From assembly GCA_000004985.1 (NCBI GenBank), contig GG738864.1: a stretch of DNA of 64,000 nt; one strand, 5' to 3'. Of this stretch, positions 1 to 64,000 are shown piece after piece; positions within the stretch are counted from its first letter, which is position 1, and every line of letters starts with the position of its first letter. The DNA comes from Naegleria gruberi. Taxonomy: Eukaryota. The notes beneath the pieces are model-generated. The model ran no database searches and was not told the origin of the DNA. It worked only from the letters and a program-made list of their open reading frames with translations. Position numbers and translations under genes: made by a program.

Positions 1-1
1 T

Positions 2-1681
2 GAAATTTTCCTCTATAATTCAATAGTTTCCAACGATTTTGTGCAGGCAAACTACTTAATTGATAATTTTAAATTGGATATCAATGCATTTTCTTATATT
101 TGGAACGTAGAATCCAATATTCTTACTGCAATTGACTACACATTCTTTACTAACATTGTACTTATATTGCACAATATTTACAAAAAGTATCCCTATTTTA
201 GAGTATTTAGGATTCCAATTGACTCTATAGATTGCTTGGAACTAGTCAAATCATTTCCGTTTGTGGACATTAATCCTTCTAAAAATATTACCAGAGCTTT
301 TTTAGAAACTATTACCCAAAATGATATTCCACTTATTTATAGAGATTACAATATTAATCTCTCTAAACTTGGAACGCTTAATTTCTCTGCTAATTGCTTT
401 CCTAATAATTTACAATTTGAAAATAGTAATAATAGTGATATTAATGGTGTATCTCCTTCAATGCTAACCAAGAAGCAACCTGATTTTAATGCAAGGGACA
501 AGTTTGGAAATAATATCCTACATTATTACTTTATCGCTGGTTATGGCCATCCTGAATTCTGGGAACAGTTACCAAAAGAAGAGTTTGAAAGATTATTAGA
601 GGAACCAAATAAGTTTGGTGTATCTTCTGCTGAGATTGGTTTGTTAAGAAAGAATAGATTAAATTTTGGACAATTTAAGAAGACGCTTAATTATGAGGGA
701 TTAGTTCAAACCTTTGGCATGCAACCCCCTAACCTATTATTTTTAGATGGATTAATAGTGGATGCAAGAATATTGCTTTCAGTTATTGGTGATGTGGACG
801 AAACTTACAACTATGAAGATTACAAAGATATTGAGTACAGAGATGAAAATGGGAAACATTTAGTGCATTACTCAAAAAATTGTTTTGGTGATTCTTTGCC
901 GAAACATTTGAAATTACCATTGCAAGATATAATTTTTTGTAAAGATAATAAGGGTACAATGCCTATTCAAACAAGCAATAATTATTATTACCATTCTTTA
1001 GACAATTTGGGATTGCTTGACAATATACCTAGAGTGAATTTTGTATCACACCAAGATGAATTTGGAATGCTTAGAATTTTATATCAAATGGTTGATTCAT
1101 ACTTAAATACGGACAAGATGGTTTGTGAGGCATTTTCTGTTGGATTTGATTACTCTTCTGGTCAACCAGAGTTACTATCATTATTTTCACATTATTCAGA
1201 TGGTCGATATCATTTTTCAATTGATAGAAGCATTATGAAACAACTTCGAGGTATTAACTGCTTTGGATCAGTTGATGGAGATGATATTTCACATTTTGTT
1301 TTGAGGTTTTATTTCAACTTTATCAAAACAAAAGAGGGATGGTATGTAGACAACTCAATTCTCAAGGTGCTGATATCTAAGGGCTTGAGATTTGATATTG
1401 TTCGAAACTCTAAGGGACAAACTGCATTCGATTTGTTTGATGAGTTCACTGGAACTCCAACCATGATGAGGAGTGTGGCTCAAGTAAAGAAGGCTTGTAG
1501 GAGAGGAGTAACCAAATCAAAAGCATTGGCCAAATTCACCATTCAACACTCTCCTAACCTTCCTCAAGAGTTGATTTTGGAAAAAAGTGAAACACACCTA
1601 GTTGTTAAATCCAACACTGTTTCTTCTTTCCGTATTCATATCAAAAGAAGCTTGTATTTTGAAAAGAAACCTAATCAATAA
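2..1681 (+). CDS. Hypothetical protein, 5'-truncated by the window edge, with ankyrin-like segments
   Basis: The reading frame is open from position 2, and the track's M at 41 is a GTG. The ORF runs to TAA at 1679-1681. Ankyrin-like motifs are present (ARDKFGNNILHYYF, RNSKGQTAFDLFDEF). Codon usage is AT-rich like the neighbouring genes. Confidence 0.45.
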   Translation, partial: EIFLYNSIVSNDFVQANYLIDNFKLDINAFSYIWNVESNILTAIDYTFFTNIVLILHNIYKKYPYFRVFRIPIDSIDCLELVKSFPFVDINPSKNITRAFLETITQNDIPLIYRDYNINLSKLGTLNFSANCFPNNLQFENSNNSDINGVSPSMLTKKQPDFNARDKFGNNILHYYFIAGYGHPEFWEQLPKEEFERLLEEPNKFGVSSAEIGLLRKNRLNFGQFKKTLNYEGLVQTFGMQPPNLLFLDGLIVDARILLSVIGDVDETYNYEDYKDIEYRDENGKHLVHYSKNCFGDSLPKHLKLPLQDIIFCKDNKGTMPIQTSNNYYYHSLDNLGLLDNIPRVNFVSHQDEFGMLRILYQMVDSYLNTDKMVCEAFSVGFDYSSGQPELLSLFSHYSDGRYHFSIDRSIMKQLRGINCFGSVDGDDISHFVLRFYFNFIKTKEGWYVDNSILKVLISKGLRFDIVRNSKGQTAFDLFDEFTGTPTMMRSVAQVKKACRRGVTKSKALAKFTIQHSPNLPQELILEKSETHLVVKSNTVSSFRIHIKRSLYFEKKPNQ

Positions 1682-1900
1682 GATTCTGATAAGGGTGTTA
1701 ACTAACAATTCTAAAGATAAAAAGAAATATTAATATCCTAGTATTAATAATATTGTTCGCCTAACCAACAGTGAACTCTGTTTCCTTGTAACTCCTTTGA
1801 AATCGTTGAACTTGGAACTCAAGAAACTTGAATTAATAGTAAAACACTATTGAACCAACAGCATAACACAAAAAAACAAGAACACAAACCACTAAACAAA

Positions 1901-3085
1901 ATGCCTTCTCTCTTTTCATCAGCCACAAAGAAGAAAAATACAGAAGGAGAAACACCCGAAGAAGTTTTTCCAACTTCCCTGAGATCATCATCAAGAAACG
2001 TTATTGAAAGGAAAGAAGTTAAAAGAATGAATGTTGTTAATGGATCAGGAACTGGAGCACTTATTCGTGCCAATCACAAAGAAGAAGAGGGATATGATCA
2101 AGAATTAGTTGACCACAGCGAAAATATTGTAGATTTAGTTATTGTAATGGATTGCACTGGATCCATGTCAGGTGAAATAGAAGCTGCCAAAACAACAGTA
2201 CTTACAATTTTAGATAGTTTAAAGGATCACTTCAAAACTGATTTGAGATTTTCTGCCATTAGTTACAGAGATCACACTGATGATTATGCTGTGAGAGAAT
2301 TCCCATTTACAAAGAATTTCGAGAAGGCCAAAGGATATATTGATACCATGTCAGCTCAAGGTGGAGGTGACCATCCGGAAGCTTTGGCTTCAGCTCTGAA
2401 AGTTGTCAATGAATTGCCATTTAATAAGAAGGGCAAAAAGATCTGTATTTGGATTGCTGATGCTCCACCCCATGGTATGAATAGCAGCGGTGACAGATAC
2501 CCAGAAGGATGCAAGGATGAGGAAGGAAATGTCATTGATTGGATTAGATTGGGATCTGATTTACAAGAAAAGGGTGTTGTTTTCTATACATTAATTTGTA
2601 AAAGAGCTCAAAATGATCAACAATTAGCTCTTTTCATGGATTTCTTGGCCACCAAAACCGATGGCAAATGCATGCTATTGACAAATGCCAACAAGTTACC
2701 AAACCTAATTATTAATGGCTCCATTGAAAATGATGAAATGGATCAACTTATTGCCCAAAAGATAGAAGAATTAGGAGAAGATAAGGTGAAACAAATGAAA
2801 GAAGATGAGCTAATTGAAAATATTCAAAAACTTTCTAAAGATGCCAAGATTAATCATGTTCAAACCTATGAAGTAGTCTCGTCGAATACTAAGAACCTTA
2901 TGGAATGTAAATCTTTATCAGCTGTAAATAGAAATCTGTATTCTACTGGCTCCAATAGAGTCGAAATGAAGGGTGCCGAATCAGAATCAAGTTTCGAATA
3001 CGGTGCTCAATCAAGACAAGCTCCAAAGCTTGAACAATACAAGAAAGCTTGCTCTAGAAAGATGAACTCAATGAATATGAAATAA
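1901..3085 (+). CDS. von Willebrand factor A (vWA) domain protein
   Basis: The track ORF begins at a TTG at 1850, and the first in-frame ATG is at 1901 in an A-rich context. The MIDAS motif VIVMDCTGSMSGE (DxSxS) sits at the start of a vWA fold, followed by an acidic coiled tail. The stop is TAA. Confidence 0.7.
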   Translation: MPSLFSSATKKKNTEGETPEEVFPTSLRSSSRNVIERKEVKRMNVVNGSGTGALIRANHKEEEGYDQELVDHSENIVDLVIVMDCTGSMSGEIEAAKTTVLTILDSLKDHFKTDLRFSAISYRDHTDDYAVREFPFTKNFEKAKGYIDTMSAQGGGDHPEALASALKVVNELPFNKKGKKICIWIADAPPHGMNSSGDRYPEGCKDEEGNVIDWIRLGSDLQEKGVVFYTLICKRAQNDQQLALFMDFLATKTDGKCMLLTNANKLPNLIINGSIENDEMDQLIAQKIEELGEDKVKQMKEDELIENIQKLSKDAKINHVQTYEVVSSNTKNLMECKSLSAVNRNLYSTGSNRVEMKGAESESSFEYGAQSRQAPKLEQYKKACSRKMNSMNMK

Positions 3086-6158: not shown

Positions 6159-7650
6159 ATGTCCACAACATTCCTTGGTATTGTCATTCATTTTGCCAAT
6201 CCTTTGAATGGCGAGAATCAGAAATTACTTCTCGGAAAGAAAATCAACATTAACGATTATGATCACTTGATCACTCTGATAAAACAAAAGATTAATGAGA
6301 GTAATTCATCATCGAGTATTGAATATAATTTTTATAACGTCTTGTTGGAGGTGGAAGATGTAAATAGTAAAGGATCGTTTCATAGGCTAACGAATTTTGA
6401 TGAATTAATAACAAACAAAGACAAGGCTATACAAATTAAAGTTTCATCAGTTGAAATTGTTTCAAAGAGTAAAGAAGCTAAACCAACAGAAACTTCATCT
6501 CCTACCGATCAATCATTAACATTCCGATTGAGTCAATGTGCCAATGATGAATTTACTGATTATCAAGAGGATTTTGAAGATAAATTAATTTATGGAGATG
6601 ATTTATCGACAGTGGAAAATAATGCACAAGCACAGAGAACTGCCAGATGGAATGGAAGATACGAACCAACAACACTATTGGGATCTGGAACTTTTGGAAA
6701 AGTATTTCTTTGTGGAGAGTATGCATTTAATGGTACTCATAAAGGAACTGTTGCTGTGAAATTGATTAATTTATTAGGAACTGTTGAAGATTTCAATAGG
6801 AAAATTAAGGTTAGTTTTCTTTTTGAGATTTATAATGACTCTTTATTAGGAAGCCCTCTTCATGTTAAAATTGAAACACGATTCTATTATGCCATGTTTG
6901 GACTTGTTTGAAATTTATGATAAGGATACAACAGAACAATCGTTGGCAATTGTGTCTCCATATTATATTCATGGTGATTTGATGAAACAATTGCAAACAC
7001 AAAAGGAAAAGAAGGAACCACTTCCAGAGGAAATTATTTTTTCAATCACAAAAGATATACTCAGTGCTTTAACATATTTACATTCTAATGTTGGTGTGGC
7101 ACACAGAGATATTAAACCAAATAATATTTTCTTGGAAAAGATCAATTTGGGAAGGAAAACAGTCAAGATGGTTCTTGGAGATTTTGGAATAGCTCGAGAA
7201 ATGACAAGTGAAACAATGAAAAATGCCACAACTGCAGGTACACCACTCTATCTTGCTCCTGAAGTCAATTTTGGTAATTACAATTTCAAATGTGATATTT
7301 ATTCATTAGGTGTTACCCTATATCAAATGCTAAGCTTGGATTTGGAAACAAATTTGATTTCAAAATGTTTTTCAAACCATCCTTTAGATACATTACAACA
7401 ATCTTCCAATGCCAAGTACATTTCTGATTACACAGAACAAATGATTATGAGAAACTATCCAAAAGAAACCAAAACACTGAAGAAACTGAAAGGTAAGCAA
7501 TTCTCTTAATAATGAGATTTTTAATCTTTTCAAAAAGAAATGATGTTTTTAATGTTGACATACAACTACAAAAAGAGACCTAGTGCCAAATACTTCCTAG
7601 AGCAACTTGAAAAGAAAGGAATTAAGCAGTTATTTGGATTCAACAAATAA
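6159..7650 (+). CDS. Ser/Thr protein kinase with an N-terminal non-catalytic domain (3 exons)
   Basis: Exons are 6159..6809, 6850..7492 and 7538..7650. A 40-nt intron (GTTAGT...TTATTAG) splits subdomain II-III (VAVK...NRKIK | EALFMLKLKH). A 45-nt intron (GTAAGC...CAAAAAG) restores subdomain XI (KRPSAKYFLEQL). Kinase motifs are GSGTFGKV, VAVK, HRDIKPNN, DFG and GTPLYLAPE. The stop is TAA at 7648. Confidence 0.75.
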
Positions 7651-13776: not shown

Positions 13777-16700
13777 ATGAAAGCATGTTTTTTCGTTCTA
13801 CTCTTGCTCTGCATCTTTCTGTTCAGCCTTGCAAGTCAAATTGACTCACAAAGCCTTCAATATAATATCAGCACGGTTGCAGGTGGTGGTTCTATTGTGG
13901 GTGATGGTTTATTAGCTAATGAGGCTATAACAAGCTACCCGTGTCAATTGGCAATTAGTTCGATTAGTGGAGATTTGTTTTTTGGAGAGGTGGTATCCAA
14001 TAGGATTCGTAAAATTACATCCTCAACTGGTGTGATATCTACTATTGCTGGAACTGGAACTGGTGCATATGGTGGAGATGGCTCCATGGCTACTGCTGCT
14101 CAATTGTTTTATCCTTATGGTGTTGCTCTAAGTTTGGGTGGTGAAATTTATATAGCAGATTCGAATAATAATAGAATTCGTAAAATAGCTACAAATGGTA
14201 TTATTACAACAATAGCAGGAACTGGAACACGTGGATATGATGGAGATGGTGCTTTGGCCACAAGTGCCAAGTTGAATTTTCCTTCATCCATAGCAATTAG
14301 TGCAACCAATGAAATTTATTTCACAGACCAATTGCAATCATAGGATTCGAAAAATAGCAACTAATGGTAATATCTCAACAATTGCAGGAACTGGAACTGG
14401 CAGCTATGGTGGTGACAATGCAATTGCAACAGGTGCACAACTTTATGCACCTGCATGTATTGCAATAGATTCTAATGGTGAATTTTACATTTCCGATTCA
14501 ATGAACCATCGTATTCGAAAAATAGCTACTAATGGTATTATTACAACAATAGCAGGAACTGGAACACATGGATATGATGGAGATGGTGCTTTGGCAATTA
14601 ATGCACAATTATACAGCCCCACGGGGGTTGTTGTCAACTCAAATGGTGATGTTTATATTGCTGACTCAGGTAATAACAGAATTCGAAAAATCTCAAAAGG
14701 ATACATCTCAACAGTAGCAGGAAATGGAATAGCTGGATATAGTGGAGATGGTGGACTATCAACAAGTGCTCAATTAGCCACTCCCCAATCAGTTGCTATT
14801 AATTTAAATGGCGAGATTATAATTGCAGATTCTAATAATAATAGAATTCGTAAAATAGCAACTAATGGAAAAATTTCAACAATTGCTGGAACATCATCAT
14901 TTGGAAATAACATACCAGCTACTTCAGCATCCATCTCACCAGTTGGTGTTCCCACTCTCTACAATAATAAGATAATTTTCGCAGATGAATCTCAAATTAG
15001 ACAAGTAGACCTTGCAACTAATATCATTTCATTAATATCTGGAACTGATTATTTGGCAAGTCCTACAGCAGCTATGTATTTCAACAATGAATTATATATT
15101 CTCTATTCAAAACTCAATTTAGATAAGCCAAAGATTAATATTGTTTCAAGAGTTGTTGGTTCTGAGGGATATAATGGCGATGATATTGCAGCCACTAGTG
15201 CACTGTTGAATTATGCTCGCTCAATTGCTGTCAATTCAAATGGTGATGTTTATATTGCTGACACTTATAATAACAGAATTCGTAAGGTCTCATTTTCAAC
15301 TGGAATCATTTCAACAGTAGCAGGAACTGGAATTGCTGGACAAAATGGTGATGGTAATTTAGCTACAAGTGCACAACTAAATTTTCCTTCAGGAGTTGCT
15401 GTGAGTTCAAATGGTGATATTTATATTGCTGACACTGAAAATCATAGAATTCGTAAGATAGAAACTAATGGATACATTGCAACAGTTGCAGGATCTGGAG
15501 CATCTGGATATAGTGGAGATGGTGGGCTGCTAACTAGTGCTAAATTCCAACAACCTCAAGGAGTGGCTGTGAGTTCAAATGGTGAGATTTATATTGCTGA
15601 CACTGAAAACCATGTGGTTCGTAAAATTTCAACTTCGAATGTACTTTCTACAATTGCTGGAACTGGTTCTTATGGATACAATGGTGACGGTGGATTGGCA
15701 ATTACTGCAAAATTATTCTCTCCCATAGGAGTTGCAATAAGTTCGAGTGGTGAAGTTTTTATTGCTGATAATAACAATCACAGAATACGTAAAATTGCAA
15801 AAGATGGCTATATTTCAACAATTGTTGGCACTGGTTTGAATGGGTATGATGGAGATGGCGATTTGGCTACGAATGCTAAATTGGGTAATCCTCAAGGTGT
15901 GACTCTAAGTCCAACTGGTGAATTGTTTATTGCTGACCAAAACAATCATAGAATTCGTAAAGTAGCAAGTAATGGATATATTTCAACTGTTGCTGGTAAT
16001 GGTAACTTTGGATTTAGTGGAGATGGTGATTTGGCAACAAATGCTGAATTGAATAGTCCTTCAGGAATAGCATTCAGTTCCATTGGTACCATGTATATTG
16101 CTGATCGTTTAAATAGAGTAATTCGAAGAGTAATCTCTGGTAATATATCCACCATTGCTGGAGGTGTTGGTGATGGAGGACCAGCTACTGGAGGATACAT
16201 TCAAGCACAATCATTTGACATTTCTTCAACTGGTGAGATTTATATTGCTGACACTGAAAATCATAGAATTCGTAAAGTTTCAACATTGGGTAAAATTTCA
16301 ACTATTGCAGGAACTGGTGCAATGGGATACAGTGGTGATGGTGGATTGGCAATTACTGCAAAATTATCCTCTCCCGTAGGAGTTGCAGTTAGCTCAACTG
16401 GTGAAGTTTTTATTGCAGACCGAGACAACCATAGAATTCGTAAAGTAACACTTTCTGGTATCATTACAACCATTGCAGGAAATGGAACTAGTGGTTTTAA
16501 TAGTGATGGAATTGAAGCAAAATTTGCTCAATTGAATAGCCCTTCCTCAGTCACAATTTCAGGTGGTGAAATCTATATTGCTGACACAAACAATCATAGA
16601 ATTCGTCAAATATCCAATACTGGTATTATTAAAACAATTGCTGGAAATGGATTTGGTGGATATATTGGTGATGGTGTATTGCCACCTAATGCTCAATTGA

Positions 16701-19700
16701 ATAGTCCTTCAGGAGTTGCAATTTCTTCCACTGCTGAAATTTACATTGCAGAAAATAAGAGAATTAGAAAACTTACAGCGTTCTGTACAGAGAATGGTGT
16801 GTTGATTGATGGAAAGTGTGTATTTCAATGTTTTGGATATACGAATAGTAATTCCTCACTTGTTTGTTCTGGAAAGGGCAACTGTATTGGAAATGATAAG
16901 TGCAACTGTTCATGGCCATACTCTGGTTCCAAATGTGATGAGTTTTATTGCAATGGAGTGTTGAATACTAACAAAACATTTGTGTGTTCATCTCATGGTA
17001 CTTGCTCATCTCCAAACAATTGTTCTTGTGTCGATGGTTTTTATGGAAATATTTGTGAATTCTTTTATTGTAATGGCGTACAACAAAATAGTTTAAATGT
17101 ATGCTCAGGTCATGGACTCTGCTCTTCTTTGAATAATTGCACCTGTCAACAAGATTATTCAGGCATTGATTGTGAAAATTTCCATTGTTATGGACTGTCT
17201 AGAGTTGATCCTAAAGTTTGCTCATCTCATGGAATTTGCTCTTCCATAAATAATTGCTCATGTGCAACTGGATATGGTGGATCTAAATGCAACGAATATT
17301 CATGTTATGATGTGAATTCTACGAATAAGACAGTTTGTTCTGGAAGAGGAACTTGTTCTTCTCCCAATAATTGTACATGCGATCCAGGATACTATGGATC
17401 AAATTGTGAATTGTACGATTGTTATGGAATATCCAAAAACAATTCGAATGTCTGCTCAGGACATGGTACTTGCATTGCTATCAATAATTGTACATGTACA
17501 GATGGTTACTATGATACCAAATGTGATTCATTCAATTGTGCAGGAGAGAAATTCACTGGTCAATCACTGTGTCAGAATAATGGTACTTGTTCTAATCCTG
17601 GTAATTGTGATTGTCCTTATCAGTTTGGAGGTGCCAGATGTGAATATTACAAATGTTATACCTATACTTCTAATGAAGCAAAAGTATGTGGCGGGCATGG
17701 TACTTGTTTAAATTACAATAATTGTTCTTGCTCTGGCAAGTGGATTGGTGACGATTGTACACAGACTACTTGTTATGGTAAAAGTTCAAACTCTAGCTCA
17801 GTATGTGGTGGAAGAGGTAATTGCACAGACTTTAATCAATGCACATGTTATGATGGGTATAGAGGTGTCGAATGTCAACACATTGTCTGTTTTGATAAGA
17901 TTGAAAACGATACATCAGTTTGTTCAGGAAATGGCAAATGTCTAACATCAAACAATTGTACATGTCAAATTGGTTATGTTGGAAATGAATGTCAATATCA
18001 CGAAATTTATTTGAATACCTCATCTGCCATAATATTTTCATTCCAGGAAAGTTTAATGAAATTGTTGCCAAATGAGAGTGGAATATTTTCATGTTCTGAA
18101 ATTTTCACTGATTCTGAAATTGCCAAATTTGGAGAAAGTACTTCGATTTCTTGCCAATGGAGAAGAAATTCACTCCTAATTCATCTTGGATTTGATTATT
18201 CTATTCAACAATACTCAATTATTCAATCAAAATTCAACTTTTCAATGAGAGTTTCTAGCTTGTCCTCAGTTTCTAATAGTGATGCTCCATCTCCAACTTG
18301 TTCTTTCGGATATGTATTGAATGAAGCTTCTCCATTATTGGATGTAGTGATACGTTTGAATTGTGATGAGAATTTGCATGGTTTTAAAAAGAGTAGAACC
18401 AGTTGGATGTGTAGTCAATGTACAGGAGCAATTTCATCAATTTTAAGTAACTATTCGAATAGATCCAGTGTTTATATTCCAATTTCGTATATGAACGCTT
18501 TGAATCCTGTTCAAGGATACAAGACAATTAATTTGCAAGCTTCTTATTCATCATCTGTTTCTTCCACCATTTCCACTAGTAAGGAAGTAAAGGTTCAAAC
18601 CTATACGAAATCTTTACCTCCAAGTTATTACTGGCTAAGTGATAATTATGATGGAAAAACCTATTCATGTGTTGGCCATAATTGTATCATTGAAACTTCA
18701 TTGAATAGTTTAAACTCCTCAATTTCTTATTCATTCTCTGGTTTATTTAGTTTATTGAACACTGATTTATATTCGAAACAAATGGTGAGATTGATAAATG
18801 AATTTTCAGGAGGAATTGTCGACAGTGAATTCAGTTCTAACATGCAAGTTTTTGGAGTTCAACTCAAGACCTATGTTTACTTACCGTATAGTATTGATTC
18901 ATTCAAATATTCCACATTTACAAATTTGGATTATGTCATGACAGGCGTCAATAGAACCTACTCAATCAATGCAGATAACTTAATAACTATAGGTTTGACT
19001 ATTGATGATCCATACATTTCAAAATACACATTAAGTGATTACATGGTATTCTCCTGGAAATGTTTCCAAGTTTCTCCTTCTAATAGGTCTTTAATTTTGA
19101 CCGATAATTTGTGTTCCTCAATAACTGACAATGCCAAATCAAATATTGAATTGGATATCAGCAAAATGTCTTTGAAAGAAGGTTCATATTTAATATCTGC
19201 TTCAATTTCATCGACTAAATACTTTGTTACAACAGTTTACAATTATGAAGGATGGATTGACTTGTTGGGAATTTCACAGGATTCTCCTCAGATAACTACA
19301 GATTATGTACCTGCTATTACTCCTTCTCATCACAATATTTATTTAAGAAATGTGGTGAAATCTTCAACAAGTGTTTCATTCTATTGGAAACTCAAAAGTG
19401 GTGAATTGAATATTGACGAAACTGTTGAAGATTTCCTTCAAAGAAATACAGTTTCTAAATCTATCTTGGGTAACAATGTTGAAATTATCTTGAATATTGA
19501 CAATGATTATCTCATCCAAGGAGAATATTATGAATTTGAATTGTCAACCAAGAATTCTAACGGTGTTTCAAATATTTCCATTTCAACAAGAATGGATTTC
19601 ACTCCTCGATTGTCATGTAATGTGGAAAATGTGAAGAATGAAGCTAACTTGACCAGTTTTGAATCTTTAATATCTATTACATGTGTAAAATTGCCATACG

Positions 19701-22134
19701 AAAGTATATCAAGTTTCGTCATGGAATTCCATTCACAAAACGAAAGATTAGGAGTCATTTCGAATACTCCAAAGAAGGCTCTTATTACCAGAGTTCCTTA
19801 TGCAATGGATGGAACAGTTACCTTAATCGTGAAACTTCAAAATTTATATGGATCTATTGGAATTTATAGAACTACTATCAGCGCTCAATTACCAAATGCT
19901 TTGACAAGTGACAACTCTATTTCTTCAAGATTTACATATGTATCCAAACAATTCCAAATTCTCAAAAATGCTCAACCAGCCAAAATTGAAGTTTCCAACG
20001 AAGTCAACACCTTACTTTCTTTATTAATCCAAAACGAAACTCTTTCTAAAATTTCAGAGAAAATTTCAAAGGAATTGAAATCTGATCAATTAGTTTCCTT
20101 TAATACAATGCTCAAAGAAATGCTAACCCTCACCAAGAGTCTACAAGACATTACTTACAAAGTTGATGAAAGATTAATTCAATTAATTCTGCCAATTGTC
20201 AACAAAATTTCCACAATTCTCAAATTAACTCTTGACACATCGTCATTATCCAATTTTGCTTCAGAATTGGAAATTTGGTTGGACTGGATTTATTCAGGAA
20301 TGAATAAGGCACTCAATTACTATCCAACTTTCATTTACAAGGAATTATTAGATGAATTTCATTTACAAGAAATTGTTTCGTTACAAAATATACTTTCGAA
20401 TATATACCAAAATAATTTGGATCAACAATTTAAATACCACAAGTACAATTTACAATATATCAAGCTTACAGGAAGTAATAGTGATAATTCAAGCTTTGTG
20501 GAAGATGTTGAGTTTTCTGATTTATTGAATGACAAGTCAATTTCACTTTCTGTTTCTAATTTTAAAGTTGATATGAAATTACCAAGTGATTTTACCAATC
20601 AAATTTCATTGAAATCAAAATCAAAACTATACTATTCCATTACCTCATTCAGTGATAATCAAACTGGTTCAAAACTTTTACAAAACAAACCAATAATTGA
20701 CCTATCTCTGTACGATACATCTTACAATGCAATATCAGTTGACAACATTAATCCACCAATAGTTTTCAAGTTCCAAGGATTGTTTTCCACTAACAAGACT
20801 AATATTAACACAACTTGTGTCTATTACAATACCATACTAGGAAAATGGTCAACCAATGGATTGCAAACAATTACAAGCGTTACCAAACGAACTGAAGAGT
20901 ACATGTACTTTGATATGGAATGTCATTCAAGTCACTTGTCTGTATTCTCAGTTCAAGAGGTTGATTACAACACCCCAATTATACCAGCCATTTCATCTAA
21001 CAAAGCTTCAAACCAACAAGAAAATCTCACCATTATTTTAGCTACTGTTTTACCTGTTAGCTTTTTAATCCTTATTTTCATTATTATCCTCTTTGTGTTT
21101 ATCATTTTACTATTCAGATTTAAGCAAAAGAAAGCAAATGAATTTGCCATTGCAACCAAAACCAATCTTGAAATGGAAGGTTTCTCAAGCAGTGATTTCC
21201 CATCCTCAGAAGGAAGCATGTTTATTCATCCTCTTATGAGTATTTCCTCAAATGGAACAACTAGTGAAGCATTCAATCCATTGTCAAGATATTCTGATTT
21301 AGTAAGAATTGGCCAAGGAGCTTTTGGAAGTGTTTTTAAAGCATTTGATAGTAAGACGTCAACTGTTAAGGCGATTAAGGTAATTAAATATTCATCCATG
21401 GAGGAGTTGAATAATTTCATGAAAGAAGGAACGCAGTTGATGAATGTGACACATCCTTATATTTTGAGAGTGAATGATTTCTTTGTGAGTAAGGATCAAT
21501 TGCTATGTATAGATATGGATTTTTATGAATTAGGAGATTTGGTCAAATTGACCAATGTTGAATTTGATTGCTCGGAGAAGTTAATCAAACAAATTATTTA
21601 TCAAATGTGTCAAGCTTTGGATTATATTCACTGCAATATGAAAATCATTCACAGAGATATCAAACCATCTAATGTTTTTGTAAAGAGTATGGAAAATGAC
21701 GATATTCACATTATTGTTGCCGATTTCGGATTGGCTAAATCAAATATTGGTGGATCAATGAATAATTCCTATGCAGGTACACCTATATTTATGGTAAGTT
21801 TTCAAATATTTCTTTCGATTCGAATAATTTTTAGTCTCCTGAACTTGGCTTGGGTGGAAAATATTATTACAATACTGATATTTACAGTTTAGGTGTTACT
21901 GTATATCAAATAATGACCAAAGACACCTCTACTTCAATCAGTCAATTGTATCTTGGAAAGGAACAAAATGAAGTTACAACGCTATTGAGAAAAAAGCTTA
22001 AAGATGGTGGACATTATTCTGAACGAGTTGTGGAATTGGTTTTACAAATGTTAACAAAGGATAATTTAACTAGGCCACAAGCTCAAGATATTTTGGAAAA
22101 TTCCTATTTTGATGATTTGAGAATGAAACGATAA
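13777..22134 (+). CDS. Giant receptor Ser/Thr kinase with NHL beta-propeller repeats, EGF-like repeats, a TM segment and a kinase domain (single-base frame disruption near 14332; one 41-nt intron)
   Basis: The signal peptide is MKACFFVLLLLCIFLFSLA. About 28 NHL-type repeats (...YIADSxNNRIRKIxxNG.ISTIAGTG...) run through ORFs 13777..14343 and 14300..21892, which differ by one base. About 15 EGF-like modules (C..G.C...N.C.C..GY.G..C) follow, then about 1000 aa of unknown ectodomain, a TM helix (IILATVLPVSFLILIFIIILFVFIILLF) and a kinase (GQGAFGSV, AIK, HRDIKPSN, DFG, GTPIFM). A GTAAGT...TTTTAG intron at 21794..21834 leads to exon 21835..22134 (SPELGLGGKYYYNTDIYSLGV). The stop is TAA. Confidence 0.7.
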
Positions 22135-26729: not shown

Positions 26730-27014
26730 AGTCAAATAGCAACAATCAAATTATTATTATTATTTGATTTCTTATTTATTGATTTAATCCATGTCATTCA
26801 AAATGCCCAAATTCTTCATTACAAACTCCTATTCGTTATTTAATATCCAGTTTTGACTCATTCCATTAATACACTTTGCCCCTTCCTCACCAATCATATT
26901 ATTGGAAATATTGAGAATGGTCAACTGTTTCATACCACTAATTGATTTAGCTCCTGCTTCACCAACAAAGTTGTATTTGACAACAAGACTTTTTAAATTA
27001 GACATTCCACTAAT

Positions 27015-28142
27015 TTAGGCTGCCCCCTCCGGTCCAATATTATTGCTGGAAATATCTAGTATTACCAAGTTGGGCAATCTACTTATTGCTCTAGCACCTT
27101 CCACACCAAAATGATTATAAGAAATATCTAGTTCAGTCAATTGTGTCATTTCACCAATGTAATTAGCTCCTGTTGCATTCATCTTTGTTGCACTAACATT
27201 CAAAATCTTTAAATTCTTCAATTTCTTAATGAATCTAGCACCCTCAGATTCTATTATATTTGATTGAACATCGAGGAGAGTGAGATTTCTTAGTTGAGAT
27301 ATAAATTTAATTCCTCCCAATTCAACAATATTGAAGGTAGCTCTCAATTCTATTAAATTCTTCATTTCTCCCAAATATTTAGCTCCTTCTGGATTAATTT
27401 CATTCCGACTCACATCTAAACTTGTCAAATTCACTAATCCACTAGAAAGAAGTCTCATGCCCTCTGGACCGTTATAATATCCACTAATCTTTAAGTATTT
27501 TAAATTATTCATCCTTGCAATAGCTTCAAACCCTTCCAAATCAATCATATTCCAGCAAATAACAAGTGAAGTCAACTGTTTCATCTTGCTAATTGAAATA
27601 GCTCCGTTAGGTCCTATGTTATTCAAAGGTATTTGCAATGTTTTCAAATTCTTCATTTTACTAATATATTTGGCTCCTTTACGCCCAACAGAATTTTTCC
27701 CAATATCCAAATAGGTCAATTCTTTCAGTTTGCTGATTAGTTTTGCCTCCTTTTCTTTTAATCCATTTTCATTAATCGAAAGACAAGTTAAATTTTTCAT
27801 TAATGACAAAACTGTTAAAAATTGTTTGTCTCTAATAAGATTCGCATAATTGACCTTAACATTTCGAATAGAGTTAAGCACTTGACTATTTCTCAAGTGT
27901 TGAACTCTTTCCTCTTGAATAATTTGATGAAAATCCAAACAAAGTTTAGAATATTGGTTGATCAAGAAGTAGGTCCATTGTTTGGAAATTAAAGGACAAT
28001 ATTTTAAAATTTCCCAACCTGTTAGAAAGCTCATAATTTCATGTATAATATCATCAGGAAGGAAATTATCTGAAAAGTTTCTAATAGAAACCTCGTGTGG
28101 TGTCGTTAATTTGGAGTTTCGCATTTTTTTTATTGTAAACAT
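27015..28142 (-). CDS. F-box / LRR (ribonuclease-inhibitor type) protein ending at an in-frame TAA inside the repeat array
   Basis: The first ATG is at 28142..28140, and the track start at 28157 is a GTG. An F-box motif (LPDDIIHEIMSFLTGWEILKYCPLISKQW) is followed by about 12 LRR_RI repeats. The TAA at 27017..27015 falls mid-repeat (IGPEGAA*). The same frame then continues with two more LRR units (ISGMSNLKSL...GAKSISGMKQLTILNISNN...) down to a TAG at 26829. Confidence 0.6.
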   Translation of the reverse strand: MFTIKKMRNSKLTTPHEVSIRNFSDNFLPDDIIHEIMSFLTGWEILKYCPLISKQWTYFLINQYSKLCLDFHQIIQEERVQHLRNSQVLNSIRNVKVNYANLIRDKQFLTVLSLMKNLTCLSINENGLKEKEAKLISKLKELTYLDIGKNSVGRKGAKYISKMKNLKTLQIPLNNIGPNGAISISKMKQLTSLVICWNMIDLEGFEAIARMNNLKYLKISGYYNGPEGMRLLSSGLVNLTSLDVSRNEINPEGAKYLGEMKNLIELRATFNIVELGGIKFISQLRNLTLLDVQSNIIESEGARFIKKLKNLKILNVSATKMNATGANYIGEMTQLTELDISYNHFGVEGARAISRLPNLVILDISSNNIGPEGAA

Positions 28143-28268: not shown

Positions 28269-29314
28269 ATGAGTCAAAATGATCAAGGTTCACCACTATC
28301 ATCAAATTTTGTATTTTCGGAACAGCGCTGTGATGATGAAGAAAATTCCTTCCCTTTGGAAACAGCGATATTAAAAATGAACATCATGATGATAACGGTA
28401 TTAATTTTAGAGATCAATTTCCTGATGAAATGTGTTATGAAGTATTGTCCTTCCTTTCGCATAGATTTATTTTGAGGACGTGTACGCTGATTTCGTCTCA
28501 GTGGTATAATGTTATTAAGGAACGTTGTTTGTTTTCGACTATGTTCAATTCACCCGTTACTAAAGAAAGAGCTCAATTGATGATTAATAGCCCCTTTCTG
28601 GAACGAATAATCTCTGTAAGTTGTACACAAGCAGCAACTACATGTAAACAATATTGGAAAGCCATTGGAATGATGAAACGATTGACTTATATTAACACAG
28701 TTAGTAACCAAATAACCTCGAATGTACTGTACATTATTAAGAATATTACAAAATTGAAATCGCTCCAGACATTATATATTGGATTTAATCCATTAGGAGA
28801 CGAGGGAGTTAAATTATTGGGTGGAATACCCAGTTTAACAAGTCTTAGTATTTGTGCAACCTCCTCAACTTTTGAATCAATGGGAGCTATTAGTCAATTG
28901 AAGAATCTCAATTATCTTGATGTTGCTTATTGTGACATTGGCGTGGAAGGGTCTAAAATAATTAGTGGAATGACCCATTTAACTGAACTTGATATTTCTC
29001 AGTCAAATATTGGGTCGGACGGAGTTAAATATATTTCTCAAATGTCAAATTTGAAAAATTTATTTATACCTGCAAATGAAATATTGGACGAAGGGGCTTT
29101 ATTTATTAGTAGTGGATTGAAAAATCTCACATTTCTCGAAATCAGTTGTAATGCACTGACGGATATAGGAATCTCAAGTATAGCTAAAATGAATCAATTG
29201 GAAGGTTTAGCCATCAACAAGAATAACATTGGTGAGGAAGGTAGAAAAGCTCTCACTCAAATGAAGGCATCCAGAACTAAATTTTATTTAGAATGTGATG
29301 ATTTGGTCCAATGA
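28269..29314 (+). CDS. F-box / LRR (RI-type) protein, apparently frameshifted between ORF 28269.. and ORF 28430..
   Basis: ORF 28430..29314 starts one residue into an F-box (FPDE|MCYEVLSFLSHRFILRTCTLISSQWYNV) and carries LRR_RI repeats. The upstream ORF 28269..28475 (MSQNDQGSPL...) overlaps it in another frame. One extra A in the A5 run at 28373-28377 would fuse them into a single protein. The two genes sit head-to-head about 130 bp apart, and the partner is the F-box/LRR gene at 27015..28142. Confidence 0.5.
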
Positions 29315-29396
29315 AGGTTTGAGTCCTCGCAACCAAAGACATTTAGATTATTAAAGGTGTCATCAAGTTTTAGTCAAACTGTTGCTGTAGCATGAT

Positions 29397-32887: not shown

Positions 32888-33104
32888 TATTAAATGTTTA
32901 TTTTCAATGTTAATATATTGAAATATTCTAGAAATATGTGGTGATGGTATGCTTTCAAAGATGAGAAAATCTTTCAATTTATTAGTTAATTCACAGATCT
33001 TTAAAAAATGGCACAATATGCATATCTGCAAAACAATTTCACAGAGATTAAAGATTTTATTATTCAACTAGCTGGTAAAACACCATGAGAATTTCTCCAA
33101 TTTA

Positions 33105-33981
33105 TTGAAACTATACGATTTGAATCCGAAAGAATTTATTTGTCATGACGAAAGCAAACTATTCGAGAAATTTGAAATTGATATTAGTCATCATGATGAT
33201 CAACAAAATTATGAAGTTAAAACCATGTTGATGATTTACTTTTTTGGATTGTCAGAATTAGACAAGTATTCTCAACCAAACTTCCAAACAAAGTTTCGTA
33301 ATTTTATTAACAATATAATTCATGACAAATCACTCGCAGGAGAAGTAAATCTATTCGATACTGGAATTGAAACTTTGGAGAAACATCAACAGTTGATACT
33401 TCATTTGTACATTCGTTTGGCAATTGACATTAATAATTCTAAATGTGATTTAGGATTTGGTGGAGTCACTTCAATTCCACCAAGATGTCTTCTACTCACT
33501 CTCTCACAAAGTACTTTTGTGAAAAGAAATAAAAATTCTTGAGTGAAAATTCTGGTCAATTGTGGCAATTTACTGAGAGCGAAAGTTTTCTTTTTACAGA
33601 TATGATCAAATTTTCACATTTTGAATATGAAGCATGTGATCCAGTTGACGATCAAAAGGAACAATACGATCTGTCTGTTGCCAATATTTCACAAATTTCC
33701 ATTGAATGTTTGTATGACAAAATATGAAAATTGTGAAATTTCAAAGGAGATATTGGATGGATTATGTTACATTTCAGAGAAACACATTCCATTTCTTCAT
33801 TCATTGCTTCAATAATTACTTATTAGTGATTATTCAACAAAGAATAGTTGGAAAATATGTTTGGCTAATCAAACACAAGATATTACGAGTCATTGGTGCT
33901 TTATTTTCCAATGATGACCTCTTTATTGGAAAAGTTGACAATCATACACTTTCAATTGATGCAACCCAAAAAGACTGGTAA
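33105..33981 (+). CDS. Probable protein-coding region of unknown function; model unresolved
   Basis: Consecutive ORFs 33105..33542, 33539..33727 and 33724..33981 tile this region in three different frames with no recognised domain. A possible 90-nt intron (GTACTT...CTTTTTACAG, about 33513..33602) would link the first two, but the third junction cannot be explained by GT-AG splicing. This may be another frameshifted gene. Confidence 0.25.
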
Positions 33982-34111
33982 TTACAAAGAGAGTTTTACA
34001 AAAAATTCAAATTGAAATCGACGATGAATCAGAAGGATCACAACAAGAACATGATTCTGCGGATTCTGAAGATTATGAAGATGGAACTGATATATCAGAA
34101 GATGATATTTA

Positions 34112-43851: not shown

Positions 43852-44843
43852 TTACTTCTTTTCAGACTTTTTCTTCAAATTGGTAATAGTTTCCTTAAGA
43901 ATCGGATCAGCATAGGCTTGAGCTTGAGCATCAGCTTCTCTGGTGATCATTTGTTCAAGACCTTGAATTTGTTGCATTCTCAAATTCTTTAAACATAATT
44001 TGGTTGCAATTGGAGGATTTCTTGCAATACGAGCTGCATAGTCCAATGCCTTTTCTCTGAGTTTATCTTCACCTTCGACAACTTCATAGACCATTCCAAT
44101 TTCGAGAGCTTTTTGAGCAGAAATCAAGTCACCAGTCAATAATAAAACACTGGCATTTTGATGACCAAGTAAATAAGGGAGGAATATGTAGAGGCCATAC
44201 CTGGTGATAAACCAATATTTACAAAGTTGACACCAAGTTTGGCACTTGTTTCAGCAAATCTGACATCTGTGGCCAAACTGATGGCCAAACCAGCACCTAC
44301 AGCATGTCCATTCAAAGCAGAAATGGTTGGAACTGGAGAGAATTTCAAAAGTGGTTCCAAGAATGAATTATAAAATTGAATCATTCTTCCAGAATTATTA
44401 TATGGTTGATCATTACAACGTTCCAATAAGAAATCAAAATCACCACCTGCACTGAAAGCAGATTTAACACCAGGAGTTTTAGATGGAGCACCTGTCAAGA
44501 CAATACATCCCAAATTCTTGTTTTTCATAATTTTATCACTTGTGAAAAGATCTCTAAATTGTTGAGCAGTTTTAACACAGAGTGCATTCATCTTTTCTGG
44601 CTTGTTAATAGTAACAATTCCGATGGTGGTTTCTTGATTGAATGGAGTGGTGAATTTTGGAGCAATTTGTGAGAGTGGAACTTCTTCAAAGACAATAAAT
44701 TGTTCTTGATCCGATGATGATGATGAACGATTCATGGACATGGTAGAGAAGGATCTTGATGAAGGCATCTTCATCATTGAAAAGCGAGAGGAAGAAGTGG
44801 CTCCAACAAGGGAGAGGACACGTCTTGAAGTGTTTTTGATCAT
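43852..44843 (-). CDS. Enoyl-CoA hydratase/isomerase (crotonase) family, mitochondrial-type; single-base frame disruption near 44188-44193
   Basis: ORFs 44136..44843 (ALNGHAVGAGLAISLATDVRFAE...NIGLSPG) and 43852..44139 (..FLPYLLGHQNASVLLLTGDLISAQKA..) align continuously to the crotonase fold (GLIPGAGGTQRLPRLVG...LTGD). They are offset by one nucleotide, and no GT-AG intron fits. The N-terminus is rich in R, S and M, like a mitochondrial presequence. Confidence 0.6.
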
Positions 44844-46013: not shown

Positions 46014-46549
46014 TTTTTTATATTAATTTATATATTAAATAATACAAATGATATTATTAGAGTATCTTTGTCTTGATTACTTTTTTGGGTGCATCAAGAA
46101 TTTTCTGCTCCATGCAACTTTCCAGGCGGCGGAATATATGTGAGGATTTATTTGACTGTGTATTACTTCATGAAATTAATATTAAACACTGTTTGGTACT
46201 ACAGATTTTACACTTGGAAGATAACGGGTAAAATTTCATACTGCTTTCATTCATCTGGGTAATGTCAATCAGCTTATTAAGGTTCTAATGGTTTCGTATT
46301 GTTACACCATCACTTGGCTGGGATAAATGGAAAAAAAAAGAGTCAACTAGTTCAATATTTGCTTTCAATTAGTTGGTTGAGCATAGTGGTATTTTAACCA
46401 TGAACCGTTCTCATTACTTTTCTAAAGTTTAAAAAATAGCAAAATGAAACTTATCAATTTTCTAAGTCTTCTTGATAGCTGTTGGTGCACTGTCTTCTAA
46501 CTTGGTTTCGTCACAAGAAGTTAGGGATGTTTCTTTGAAAGTATGTTAA

Positions 46550-47877
46550 AAATCTCTAGATTTAGTCAATTACAAGCTTTTAAGATACACTGGCTTCTCT
46601 ATCGACCTAATTCAATTTCTTGTTTCCAAAATGACAAACGTGTCCATTGAATTTTATGAAGCTCCAGATGGTACCTTTGGTAGTCCAACTGCTGCGAATG
46701 TGAATGGAAACTGGTCAGGAACCATCGGTGAAATAATATCTGGTCGTGCTGATGTCATGATTGGCCCTTTAACAATTACTCAAAGTAGACATCAAGTCAT
46801 GGATTTTACAACAAGTTTCTTTGATGTTGGACTTTCTATTCTAACTCTTAAACAAGGAGAGGAATCTAATTTATTTTCATTCTTATTACCATTCTCGTGG
46901 GAGGTTTGGATTTTGATTTTCGTGAGTGCATTAATAGTTGCCTTGCTAACATGGGTTTTTGACCATGTTTCGCCTTATGGACATTCGAAACAATCAGACG
47001 AATCAAAGAATGAATTTGATTTTAGTGGTTCGTTAATCAATGTATGACAATATCTGGTCAAGACGGAAATCCAGGTAAAAGCTGGTCAACCAGAATCATG
47101 TTGTTAGGTTATTTCCTCTTTGTCATGATTATTCTCTCAACTTATACAGCTAATTTGGCAGCCGTCCTGACAACAAAGGTTCAATCCACAAGAGTTACTG
47201 GACTATCTGATATCAGAACCTACGGATTCAAGTTTGGTGTGGCTAAAAACTCTGCTCCTGCTTCTTACATTTCCAGCAGTGAAGACATGGCAGATATCAA
47301 AAAGAATATGGTTGTATTCGATTCCCTCGATGATTGTTTACAAGCTCTGAGAGATGGAAAGGTGGATGCTTTGATTTGGGCAAGTGCCATTCTCGAATAT
47401 ATGGCCAATCAACCACCATGTGATACTTTGGTCGTTGGTGATTTGTTTAGTCCTGGAAATTATGGTTTACCTTTTGCTAAGGGAAATTGGATGATTGGTC
47501 ATTTCACTTCGGTGTTGTTGTCGATGAGAGAAAGTGGACTTGTTGAGAAACTCAAAAGGAAGTGGTGGATTGATAAGGGAAGCTGTTCATTGGTTGAATT
47601 GACACAAACAGCAACAGGTGTAAAGATTCAAGACTTGGGAGGTATCTTTTTGATTTTGGCAGGTTTTGTAGTTGTTGGTGGTGTGGTTTTGATATTCGAA
47701 TTAGTATATAGGGCTGTATATGACAAGACAAAACACAAAACTAAACATCTGAAATATCTGAATAGATTCTTGGGAGGTGAAAAGCACCTAGTTCAACGTG
47801 AGAAAGATGTACAGGAATTGAACACCACGAATATTGCAACTCCAACACTCGAAAAAGATGGGAATATGAACCAGTAA
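46550..47877 (+). CDS. Ionotropic glutamate receptor-like channel (S1-M1-pore-M2-S2-M3, no amino-terminal domain); 5' exon unresolved; single-base frame disruption near 47024-47026
   Basis: Features are S1 (YTGFSIDLIQFL...NGNWSGTIGEIISGRADVMIGPLTITQSR), M1 (FLLPFSWEVWILIFVSALIV), a pore loop with the SYTANLAAV(LTT) signature, S2 (KVDALIWASAILEY...GLPFAKGN) and M3. ORF 46631..47047 and ORF 47044..47877 are offset by one nucleotide across the M1-pore linker (NEFDFS|WFVNQCMTISGQDGNP). The frame is open upstream to 46550, and a candidate first exon with ATG lies at 46444. Confidence 0.6.
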
Positions 47878-49393: not shown

Positions 49394-49466
49394 GCCGACA
49401 TAGCTCAGTTGGGAGAGCGTAAGACTGAAGATCTTAAGGTCCCTGGTTCGATCCCTGGTGTCGGCA
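49394..49466 (+). tRNA. tRNA-Phe (anticodon GAA)
   Basis: The sequence is GCCGACATAGCTCAGTTGGGAGAGCGTAAGACTGAAGATCTTAAGGTCCCTGGTTCGATCCCTGGTGTCGGCA. It has a 7-bp acceptor stem (GCCGACA/TGTCGGC), a D-loop AGCTCAGTTGGGAGAGC, an anticodon loop ACTGAAGAT, a T-arm GGTTCGATCC and discriminator A. There is no intron, and it is followed by a T5 run. Confidence 0.9.
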
Positions 49467-59908: not shown

Positions 59909-60123
59909 GCTTTACTTTCAAGATTTTTTTTATTGATGATGTAATTACTCATAGTACCCAGCAATTACTCATAATGAAACACAGTAAAGATTATTTATCA
60001 TCAAAATATGATTTAGATAATAGAGAACATTTTACAATCCTAATGAAACTACCCAAGAAGAAAAATTATACAAGGAAATTATAATTTAGAGTTTTGCTAG
60101 TTGATGTATTATTAATAATTAAA

Positions 60124-62435: not shown

Positions 62436-62570
62436 ATGACAAATCCATTACTTTAAAGAAAGTGTATAGCGTAAATACCATTTAAATCATCAAGAAGCAA
62501 AAAACAAATTAGCTCACGATCGTAGGTGACAATAATAAACAAGTAAAATGTCAAAAAACTAAACACAAAT

Positions 62571-62928
62571 TTATTGGTGCTTGGCGAGCAATTCCTTGAC
62601 GAGAGCAACGTATTGTTCCATGGCATCTTCCTTGGTCATACCTTCCTTACCCTTCCAGGCGTCCCTATTTTAATATTGTTGTTATTAATAAAATATCATT
62701 TTAAAACAACTTACCATTTAGCTCTATCCTTCATGTAGAAGATAGATGGTTGATCAGTGTTGCAATCACCAACAGTAGCTTGCTTGTACTATAAAATTAT
62801 TAGTTGATGACATGATGAATATTTAAACATACCAAAGAGTACAACAAAAGGAGATCATCATTGGTTGGTCCAGAGGTCAACTTCTTGATGTCTTCAGCAG
62901 CTTGAGTGAAATCTTCTTGCAAACCCAT
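62571..62928 (-). CDS. Acyl-CoA-binding protein (ACBP), 3 exons
   Basis: Exons are 62833..62928, 62715..62788 and 62571..62664. The introns are 44 nt (GTATGT..TTATAG) and 50 nt (GTAAGT..AAATAG). The 87-aa product MGLQEDFTQAAEDIKKLTSGPTNDDLLLLYSLYKQATVGDCNTDQPSIFYMKDRAKWDAWKGKEGMTKEDAMEQYVALVKELLAKHQ matches ACBP throughout. Confidence 0.8.
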
Positions 62929-63185
62929 TTTTATGTGTTGTTGATTTTTTGTTTTTTGAAAATTTATTTTCCTTCTTCCGAAGGCCATTTAATTCGGCCC
63001 AAGACAAGTCATCAAATTTTTAGTCCGTTGTTGATTGTCGACGTTGTAAAGTTGCTTTCAGTTTATTGGTTTGAATTATCAATTAACAGCTTTGGCACGT
63101 CAAGAGTTGAGGATGGCCATTAATTGCATGAAAAGTTTCTTAATTGTTAAATTGTCTAATTTGCAATATTTTCAAATATTAAAAA

Positions 63186-64000
63186 ATGTCAAAGTATGAT
63201 CCATACGTTGTCGATGACAATGAAAGTAGTTGTGAGGAAGTTGATGATGAAGAAAATGAAGATGATGATGATGATGACGATGAGGACATTAATACATTAG
63301 AAACAAAACCAGCCTTGGGATCCTTATTTTCTAGTGTTGTTGAGATGGGTGGAGGTAATTTTACTTGTGGAGGTGCATTGCAAAGTAATTTTGGCTTACC
63401 TGGATTGGAAATTATCATTCCGAAGTCATCATCGGATCAATCATCAAGTAATGTTTCTTCATCAAGTGAACAATTTGAATATAAACCAATTGCCTTACCA
63501 ATTGTTTCAAAAGAACAAGCTAATGAATTAATTTCTCAATGCTCTAAAGCTCCTTTTGGAAAAGGAGAAGAAACAATTTATGATGATAAGGTTAGAAATT
63601 CATGGCAATTGTCACCTTCACAATTTAGAATTTCTAATAAGAATTGGAATGTTATGTTAAATGAATTAATGAATGGTGAATTGAAACGTGGATTGGGAAT
63701 TAATGAAAATGTTAAAATTAAGTGTTCACTATACAAATTATTATTATATGAGGAAGGTGGACATTTTGAATTTCACAGAGATACTGAAAAGGAAGATCAA
63801 ATGTTTGCTACTTTAGTGATTCAACTTCCATCAGTTTATAAAGGAGGTAATATTATTGTAAAACATTGATCTAATGAGGAAGTTTATGATTTATCAAACG
63901 AATCATCATATACTCCATTCTATTTCAGTTTCTATTGTGATTGTAAACACAAAGTAGACGTAGTTACAAGTGGTTATAGAACTTGCTTGATTTATAATGT
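63186..64000 (+). CDS. 2OG-Fe(II) oxygenase-like protein with a poly-Asp N-terminus; in-frame TGA at 63867; runs off the window end
   Basis: ATG at 63186. An acidic tract is encoded by a GAT repeat. The oxygenase core has the motif LLLYEEGGHFEFHRDTEKEDQMFATLVIQLPSVYKGG (H-x-D). After TGA (63867..63869) the same frame stays open to the window end and encodes FYCDCKHKVDVVTSGYRTCLIYN, which fits the H...R second-His strand. Confidence 0.5.
63261..63285. repeat. GAT trinucleotide repeat encoding poly-Asp
   Basis: gatgatgatgatgatgacgatgaggac lies within the CDS at 63186. Confidence 0.6.

Follow-up and report, generated by a model that had tools for sequence, protein, structure and literature searches.

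The lesions described here lie in a 64,000-nucleotide stretch of DNA from Naegleria gruberi (contig GG738864.1 of assembly GCA_000004985.1; the window) and consist of one-base offsets and premature stops that interrupt otherwise recognizable genes. Breaks of this kind are known from several systems. Non-processed pseudogenes combine multiple lesions, truncation, non-triplet indels between strains and absence of annotation, and the same combination is found, on sequence alone, at one locus only, a relic at 33.0–34.0 kb of the family that includes XP_002669465, XP_002681847, and XP_002669778. Frameshift artefacts of draft genomes, hidden in gene models by spurious introns, have a counterpart in the crotonase gene of the window: its RefSeq model, XP_002678006, drops 31 codons, and a ~98% identical strain has an intact 330-residue form, the difference being that the base concerned may be a true mutation of strain NEG-M rather than an error. 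Loss-of-function variants that are polymorphic or confined to one allele, as known from heterozygous clonal microbial eukaryotes, are likewise single recent lesions in constrained genes, and the genus is reported as heterozygous with variable ploidy (PMC9928731), but at none of the sites in the window has a second allele been seen. Programmed ribosomal frameshifting, of the Euplotes-type +1 or the viral/antizyme type, is similar only superficially, through a one-base offset that joins family-collinear open reading frames (ORFs); here there is no slippery motif at the crotonase or ionotropic glutamate receptor (iGluR) site, no conserved shift, and the orthologue is in frame.

The original prediction, made from the letters of the window, had listed eight sites, and all eight are real frame breaks or in-frame stops, lying ~0–30 nt from where it had placed them. 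Chance does not account for the breaks because the frames flanking the isolated lesions are open for 113–283 codons (P between 2e-8 and 8e-4, given a stop density of 1 in 16 in the window) and are collinear with the same family on both sides. We consider it likely that the lesions have a mixed origin, comprising an old pseudogene, turnover in a fast-changing family, and isolated errors or mutations. The locus at 33.0–34.0 kb would be the 5' fragment of a member of a lineage-specific family of ~800–880 residues that has gathered frameshifts, a stop, and deletions. Two F-box/LRR genes would belong to a quickly turning-over repeat family, where ordinary birth-and-death variation would account for the nonsense codon late in one gene and, in the other, for the frame offset near the 5' end and the strain-specific indels near the 3' end. 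The crotonase, NHL receptor kinase, iGluR-like, and 2OG-like genes each carry one isolated lesion (possibly two in the iGluR-like gene) in an otherwise open and collinear frame, which would have arisen either as a residual base-calling or consensus error of the draft or as a NEG-M-specific, possibly single-allele, loss-of-function mutation. Because these frames are otherwise long, open, and family-collinear, the lesions in this last class would be very recent or not biological. The coordinates of all features are given in Table 1.

Table 1. Positions of the genes, lesions, relic segments, and introns discussed in the text
Feature	Position	Strand	Remarks
Decayed, 3'-truncated gene copy	33008..33981	+	N. 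gruberi-specific family of ~800–880 residues
Relic, profile 11–26	33017–33064		frame f2
Relic, profile 41–185	33093–33533		frame f0
Relic, profile 174–183	33500–33529		frame f2, then in-frame TAA 33530–33532
Relic, profile 185–247	33533–33718		frame f2
Relic, profile 311–338	33832–33921		frame f1
Enoyl-CoA hydratase (crotonase) gene	43852..44843	-	split into ORFs of 235 and 95 residues
One T missing (-1)	44183..44184	-	T3 run; TATTCC in window, TATTTCC in contig L001
Receptor-kinase gene	13777..22134	+	signal peptide, >20 NHL repeats, EGF repeats, transmembrane (TM) segment, protein kinase (Pfam NHL, TEN_NHL, EGF_2, Pkinase)
One extra base (+1)	14328..14334	+	third NHL repeat; 7 nt CAATTGC between GAC (D) and AAT (N)
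iGluR-like gene	46444..47877	+	no amino-terminal domain; signal-peptide start; S1-M1-pore-M3-S2-M4; possible 36-nt intron 46541–46576
One base missing (-1)	47026..47044	+	pore-loop coding region; from homologue alignment
Probable second offset (+1)	46459..46470	+	signal peptide; MKLINFLS in ATG frame, FLIAVGALSSNLVSSQ in next frame
F-box/LRR (RNI-like) gene	26829..28142	-	Pfam LRR_6/LRR_8 on both sides of stop; F-box-like N terminus
In-frame TAA, substitution-type	27015..27017	-	61 codons short of natural stop
Second F-box/LRR gene	28269..29314	+	5' ATG-bearing ORF and F-box/LRR ORF in different frames
Probable one-base deletion or equivalent	28340..28417	+	likeliest site A5 run 28370–28374
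2OG-Fe(II) oxygenase-like gene, probable	63186..64000	+	runs past window end; in-frame TGA
In-frame TGA	63865..63867	+	between HxD motif (HRD) and distal His/Arg
tRNA-Phe (GAA) gene	49394–49466	+	between Ras GTPase gene and LRR gene
Intron	6810–6849		
Intron	7493–7537		
Intron	8192–8234		
Intron	8451–8500		
Intron	21794–21834	+	canonical 41-nt intron of receptor-kinase gene; GTAAGT...TTTTTAG, joins GTPIFM and SPELG
Intron	42557–42603		
Intron	42687–42725		
Intron	45256–45298		
Intron	62789–62832		

The locus at 33.0–34.0 kb, which has no annotation in the reference, provides the clearest case of decay. Its stitched product matched XP_002669465, XP_002681847, XP_002669778, and XP_002677673 by phmmer, and an exhaustive HMMER search placed it in a family of four N. 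gruberi paralogues on other scaffolds (788–883 residues, plus a 197-residue fragment), together with a 74-residue ORF of a related strain. A codon-usage profile of coding potential was too noisy at 20 codons to locate the frame changes, and a family hidden Markov model (HMM) was used. With tblastn and this HMM, the paralogue profile maps collinearly on the relic in three frames, giving at least three frame changes (~33065–33093, ~33507–33533, and 33718–33832, the last including the loss of ~60 profile positions) in addition to the in-frame TAA. Past position 338 of the family profile no match was found in the locus, and the relic is ~520 residues shorter than its paralogues. The offsets at 33540 and 33725, proposed as single-site lesions, are real frame changes, but they lie inside this multi-lesion relic and are not isolated. 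The changes at ~33065–33093 and ~33507–33533, with its TAA, are additions to the eight sites, as is a probable iGluR offset at ~46459–46470.

Independent data from a related strain, ~97% identical to the window, bear directly on this locus. L004, a contig of a separate metagenome assembly, covers 33773–34238 at 96% identity; it is identical to the window at 33960–33993, including the stop, has the same frame structure, and differs elsewhere in the relic by 1-, 2-, 5-, and ~54-nt indels. Because L004 shares the frame and stop and differs by non-triplet indels, the lesions cannot be an artefact of the NEG-M assembly. In the other stretches aligned with the related strain, non-triplet indels fall only outside coding sequence (CDS), except at the crotonase site and at 29093 in the second F-box/LRR gene. 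With at least two independent disabling lesions, a truncation, and lesions recovered in independent data along with non-triplet indels, the locus at 33.0–34.0 kb is a genuine pseudogene, probably an old one, decaying neutrally in two strains. The crotonase and receptor-kinase genes, which have single lesions, do not show this pattern.

Two other features of this region were noted. In L004 (region 44–129) the relic carries a ~54-nt segment, encoding ...KNDEDSTIFSTELIFKLPEIVNSG, that is missing from the window at 33814–33829. An imperfect direct repeat (ATTACTTATTAGTGA / ATAGTTAATAGTGGA) lies on either side of the breakpoint, suggesting a deletion by slippage or microhomology. Beyond the last homologous segment of the relic, an acidic ORF (…DDESEGSQQEHDSADSEDYEDGTDISEDD…; 33960–34133, plus strand) has a high codon-usage score and is interrupted in L004 (region 353–412) by a 5-nt insertion; it may be either a coding tail or a product of chance.

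In the crotonase gene, the two ORFs match positions 3–137 and 154–239 of Pfam ECH_1, and the frame-corrected product covers the ECH_1 fold in a single polypeptide. As shown by comparison with L001, a contig from the ENA metagenome assembly ERZ929261 that is 97.9% identical to window positions 45019–41295, the site reads ACATATTCCTCCC in the window and ACATATTTCCTCCC in the related strain. L001 encodes the intact crotonase, to which the frame-corrected window product is 97–98% identical, and the missing T is the sole non-triplet difference within the CDS, the remainder being triplet indels and seven substitutions. Naegleria proteins were the first matches of the frame-corrected query; the related strain, N. 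fowleri, Willaertia, and a metagenomic Naegleria all have the gene in frame, and the N. fowleri and Willaertia orthologues are collinear across the break. No near-identical second copy was present among the crotonase search matches. Because the crotonase of the related strain is intact, the lesion in the window either is recent, or is confined to one allele, or is an error of base calling. XP_002678006 (265 residues) is 100% identical to the window translation minus 31 residues around the frameshift and begins at a downstream Met; by this comparison, the model hides the frameshift behind a spurious 31-codon intron. The need for frame correction of annotation from this contig, which had been anticipated, is borne out by this model.

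The receptor-kinase gene begins with a 188-codon ORF (from 13777) that encodes a signal peptide and NHL repeats and ends at a stop; a 2,530-codon ORF from 14300 carries the NHL repeats on in a different frame. All 11 of the other NHL repeats that were matched read [IF]Y[IF]xD-x-x-N[HN]R/V, with D and N[HN]R set two codons apart, and deletion of one base at the site restores both this motif and the 56-residue repeat spacing. Repeat homology therefore proves a single-base insertion in the assembled sequence, which places the signal peptide and the first 185 codons in a different frame from the other ~2,600 codons. A protein search aimed at the NHL junction and at the stop in the LRR gene was dominated by NHL-repeat proteins of bacteria and eukaryotes. 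As a separate observation on the NHL ectodomain (13777–15000), NHL-repeat proteins of bacteria (from Spirosoma, and numerous Bacteroidota-like ones from metagenomes; 45–53% identity) score as high as the paralogues of N. gruberi and N. lovaniensis, a likeness that could come from either repeat-consensus convergence or an old transfer.

The iGluR-like gene gave a comparable result. Pfam Lig_chan-Glu_bd and Lig_chan were matched on both ORFs, YTANLAA (an SYTANLAA-like M3) is present, and the first ~43 positions of the S1 profile are missing. Once the frame is corrected, S1, M1, pore, M3, S2, and M4 lie in one chain with which 24 homologues are collinear. In tblastn alignments, 24 of 24 homologues leave frame +2 no later than 47044 and enter frame +1 no earlier than 47026, and several are contiguous across the break (P0124 at residues 304/305; P0121, a single ORF, with an overlap at 167–169): frame +2 reads DFSGSLINV and a stop and frame +1 then reads VNQCMTISGQDGNPGK, compared with the gapless DFSNAVINAGMSFVGQSGDPGR of P0121. 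Homology proves one missing base in the assembled sequence here. The claim that both sides of three frameshifts align to one family, made for the crotonase, iGluR-like, and receptor-kinase genes, is upheld by these homologies. A second offset in the signal peptide is probable, as judged from the ATG frame, which stops after 18 codons, and from the continuing hydrophobic frame, which has no ATG. The nearest homologue is a EukProt protein with 48% identity. Among the protein-database matches for the iGluR-like segment there was no protein of N. gruberi, N. fowleri, or N. lovaniensis, nor was any identical or near-identical protein found in the protein database; a scan of JGI metagenome contigs returned no relatives, and a chimeric protein query for related-strain versions of four lesion genes returned only distant iGluRs. 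The gene may be on its way out of the genus.

The probability that the supposed frameshifts are in truth misread spliceosomal introns of short length is negligible. Introns in this eukaryote are very short, and several ORF junctions that had not been flagged are truly introns (6810–6849, 7493–7537, 8192–8234, 8451–8500, 21794–21834, and ~23563–23618). At the flagged breaks, however, the homologous protein is continuous and leaves no space for an intron, and no donor/acceptor pair of the local type spans any of these sites: an exhaustive enumeration found no frame-compatible GT-AG intron at the iGluR site, and the receptor-kinase site (GTGCCA type) and the F-box site (GTCAAA, GTTCAC, and GTGATG) offer only weak, non-consensus donors whose use would remove conserved sequence, including repeat sequence in the receptor kinase. 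Collinearity requires no excision, as seen from P0124 residues 304/305, the 56-residue NHL spacing, and the single-T difference from L001.

Of the two F-box/LRR genes, the first contains a stop in the context GPEGAA-stop-ISGM, compared with the paralogous EGAKYISEM, so that the TAA occupies the residue after EGA[KR] of an RNI-type LRR unit; two more LRR units follow before the natural stop. Because this position is Tyr in 7 of the 18 LRR units in the window's four LRR genes, the TAA arose most simply, and probably, from TAY. In the second gene, the F-box ("FPDEM...", FPDEMCYEVLSFL...) has no upstream in-frame ATG, the adjacent frame holds an ORF that starts with ATG, and paralogues begin 30–60 residues ahead of their F-box; in the frame-corrected product, Pfam F-box-like is matched at residues 52–93. 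The offset flagged at 28373 is probable, not proven. Aligned with this gene, the related-strain contig L002 differs by a 1-nt indel at 29093; 46 nt downstream of the indel, L002 lacks (at 2043/2044) the 230 bp of 29140–29369, comprising the 3' end of the gene and intergenic spacer. Because the related strain has both changes, the gene is variable in nature.

Programmed recoding (-1/+1 ribosomal frameshifting, selenocysteine (Sec) insertion, or stop read-through) draws some support from the second F-box/LRR gene, where a zero-frame CCCTTTG heptamer (X XXY YYZ form; 28352–28358, plus strand) lies just upstream of the -1 shift that the gene would need, and from the stop at 63865, a TGA and thus the Sec codon. 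Heptamers with Z = G are poor shifters, and this one is most likely a chance occurrence in AT-rich, run-rich sequence. Recoding as a general explanation is scarcely credible: the X XXY YYZ heptamer is absent at the crotonase and iGluR sites, the zero-frame stop at the +1 site sits four codons beyond the latest possible shift point, and the offset is not conserved, the crotonase orthologues being simply in frame and the iGluR homologue P0121 a single ORF.

The TGA in the probable 2OG-like gene lies downstream of HFEFHRD, in the context GGNIIVKH-stop-SNEEVYDL...CKHKVDVVTSGYR, with the frame open for 44 codons to the end of the window, so that the 3' UTR, where a SECIS element would be expected, falls outside it. 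The truncated ORF had no Pfam match; only the read-through product matched 2OG-FeII_Oxy_3 (PF13640) across the stop, at positions 2–93 of 98 (E 3.6e-5; 25.1 bits against a curated cut-off of 27). No homologue with Cys or Sec at the position of the TGA was found, the JGI metagenome contig scan gave no relatives, and a PDB sequence search returned noise only.

With the individual lesions established, we considered whether all or nearly all of them could be uncorrected base-calling or consensus errors of the draft, the genes being intact in the organism. The original prediction had held uncorrected indel errors to be the most likely cause. Several features agree with this: several offsets are in or near short homopolymers (T3 at 44183, A5 at 28370, and AA/TT at 14330), the crotonase, receptor-kinase, and iGluR frames are otherwise perfectly open and family-collinear, and the ~98% identical strain has an intact crotonase. 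The NEG-M reference, moreover, is an unfinished ~8x Sanger draft, and in a draft of that kind ~1 error per 10 kb is not unusual. As a cause of the whole set, error is nevertheless improbable. The relic is ~520 residues short of its paralogues, with a frame and stop structure shared by an independent contig of another strain; two of the lesions are stops created by substitution and not by an indel; and the window contains neither Ns nor gaps of the kind that poor assembly leaves. For the 33-kb locus, where the changes point to neutral decay, the sequence of L004 effectively refutes it. Comparison with a second isolate, which had been suggested as a check, gave a divided answer, with the crotonase intact in one contig (L001) and the decay of the relic shared in another (L004). 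Exact look-ups of nine truncated ORFs gave no match in other assemblies, and no statement on frameshift errors in the N. gruberi assembly was found in the literature.

The converse, that all lesions are real and reflect a high load of loss-of-function alleles, some on one homologue of a heterozygous (diploid or higher) clonal laboratory strain, with a collapsed reference that shows the broken allele, is unlikely. Naegleria is described as for the most part diploid and heterozygous, with ploidy that varies in culture, and N. gruberi as heterozygous (PMC9928731). Consistent with such a load, frameshift and deletion polymorphism is real in the LRR gene of the related strain, one real pseudogene is present, substitution-type stops exist, and for the iGluR-like gene, which may have a second lesion, no homologue was detected in other Naegleria proteomes. 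Three or four conserved genes disabled independently and very recently within 64 kb would, however, far exceed the usual natural load, and there is no direct evidence of a second allele. A narrower version, in which the isolated lesions are real and allele-specific, so that sheltered loss-of-function alleles would exist in ~1/10 of the genes of NEG-M, a long-cultured clonal amoeba that has more than one genome copy, we regard as quite unlikely; if true, these lesions would show, in directly measurable form, the mutational load of a free-living protist propagated as a clone. As a smaller variant of it, which we do not grade separately, the iGluR-like gene would be the last, now decaying, ionotropic glutamate receptor of Naegleria.

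A mixed origin therefore remains our preferred account, in which error and mutation are, by our estimate, about equally probable at each isolated site, leaning toward error for the crotonase and receptor-kinase genes. Several points weigh against it. The split of the isolated lesions into errors and mutations is an estimate from sequence alone. Seven lesion-bearing genes among ~29 is high both for the usual draft error rate and for a natural load of loss-of-function alleles, so either the error class or the mutation class could be larger than we assume. The 2OG assignment is probable, the Pfam match being slightly under the curated threshold. Finally, the iGluR-like gene might have to be counted among the real pseudogenes, given its second probable offset and the lack of a Naegleria homologue in the protein database.

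Overall, the phenomenon is an ordinary one, pseudogenes together with draft-quality or strain-specific lesions, and calls for correction of annotation, with no new mechanism. For at least seven genes in this stretch of the widely used NEG-M reference, the annotated or derivable proteins are wrong or missing: the crotonase model lacks 31 core residues, a 2,700-residue receptor kinase is cut from its signal peptide, no matching protein was found in the database for the iGluR-like gene, and a pseudogene has gone unrecognized. Proteome-based comparisons of gene presence, absence, or domain content inherit these faults. Blanket polishing would be a mistake for some of the sites, one of the loci being truly dead.

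That the window itself belongs to the public reference draft of N. gruberi NEG-M follows from five of its ATG-to-stop ORFs, which are letter-identical to NEG-M RefSeq proteins (XP_002677916, XP_002677914, XP_002677998, XP_002678001, and XP_002678008), all of which map to one 441,990-bp scaffold. Its G+C content is 30–37%, and Pfam identified eukaryotic families (UBA/UBX, Ras/Roc, F-box/LRR, NHL-EGF receptor kinase, iGluR, and INTS6). A prokaryotic operon reading, raised by 4-nt ATGA overlaps of adjacent genes, was ruled out, the families being eukaryotic and the overlapping halves belonging to one protein. After short canonical introns were modelled, ~22 of the ~29 genes look intact; the suggestion of a pseudogene-rich accessory region thus holds only in part.

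The nine canonical introns are 39–50 nt long, with donors of the form GT[AT][AC]G[TC] (GTAAGT, GTTAGT, GTACGT, GTATGT, and GTAAGC) and acceptors TAG, CAG, or AAG, and each links two parts of one domain, for example WDV to EGQ in the Ras GTPase and GTPIFM to SPELG in the receptor kinase. An extra lesion suspected in a TM-kinase gene at 22.2–23.9 kb was ruled out, the junction being a 56-nt GTATGC...GATAG intron at ~23563–23618, and the kinase gene at 6.1–7.6 kb is intact, with two introns. Such uniformly tiny introns provide a handy local rule for separating introns from frameshifts in the N. gruberi genome.

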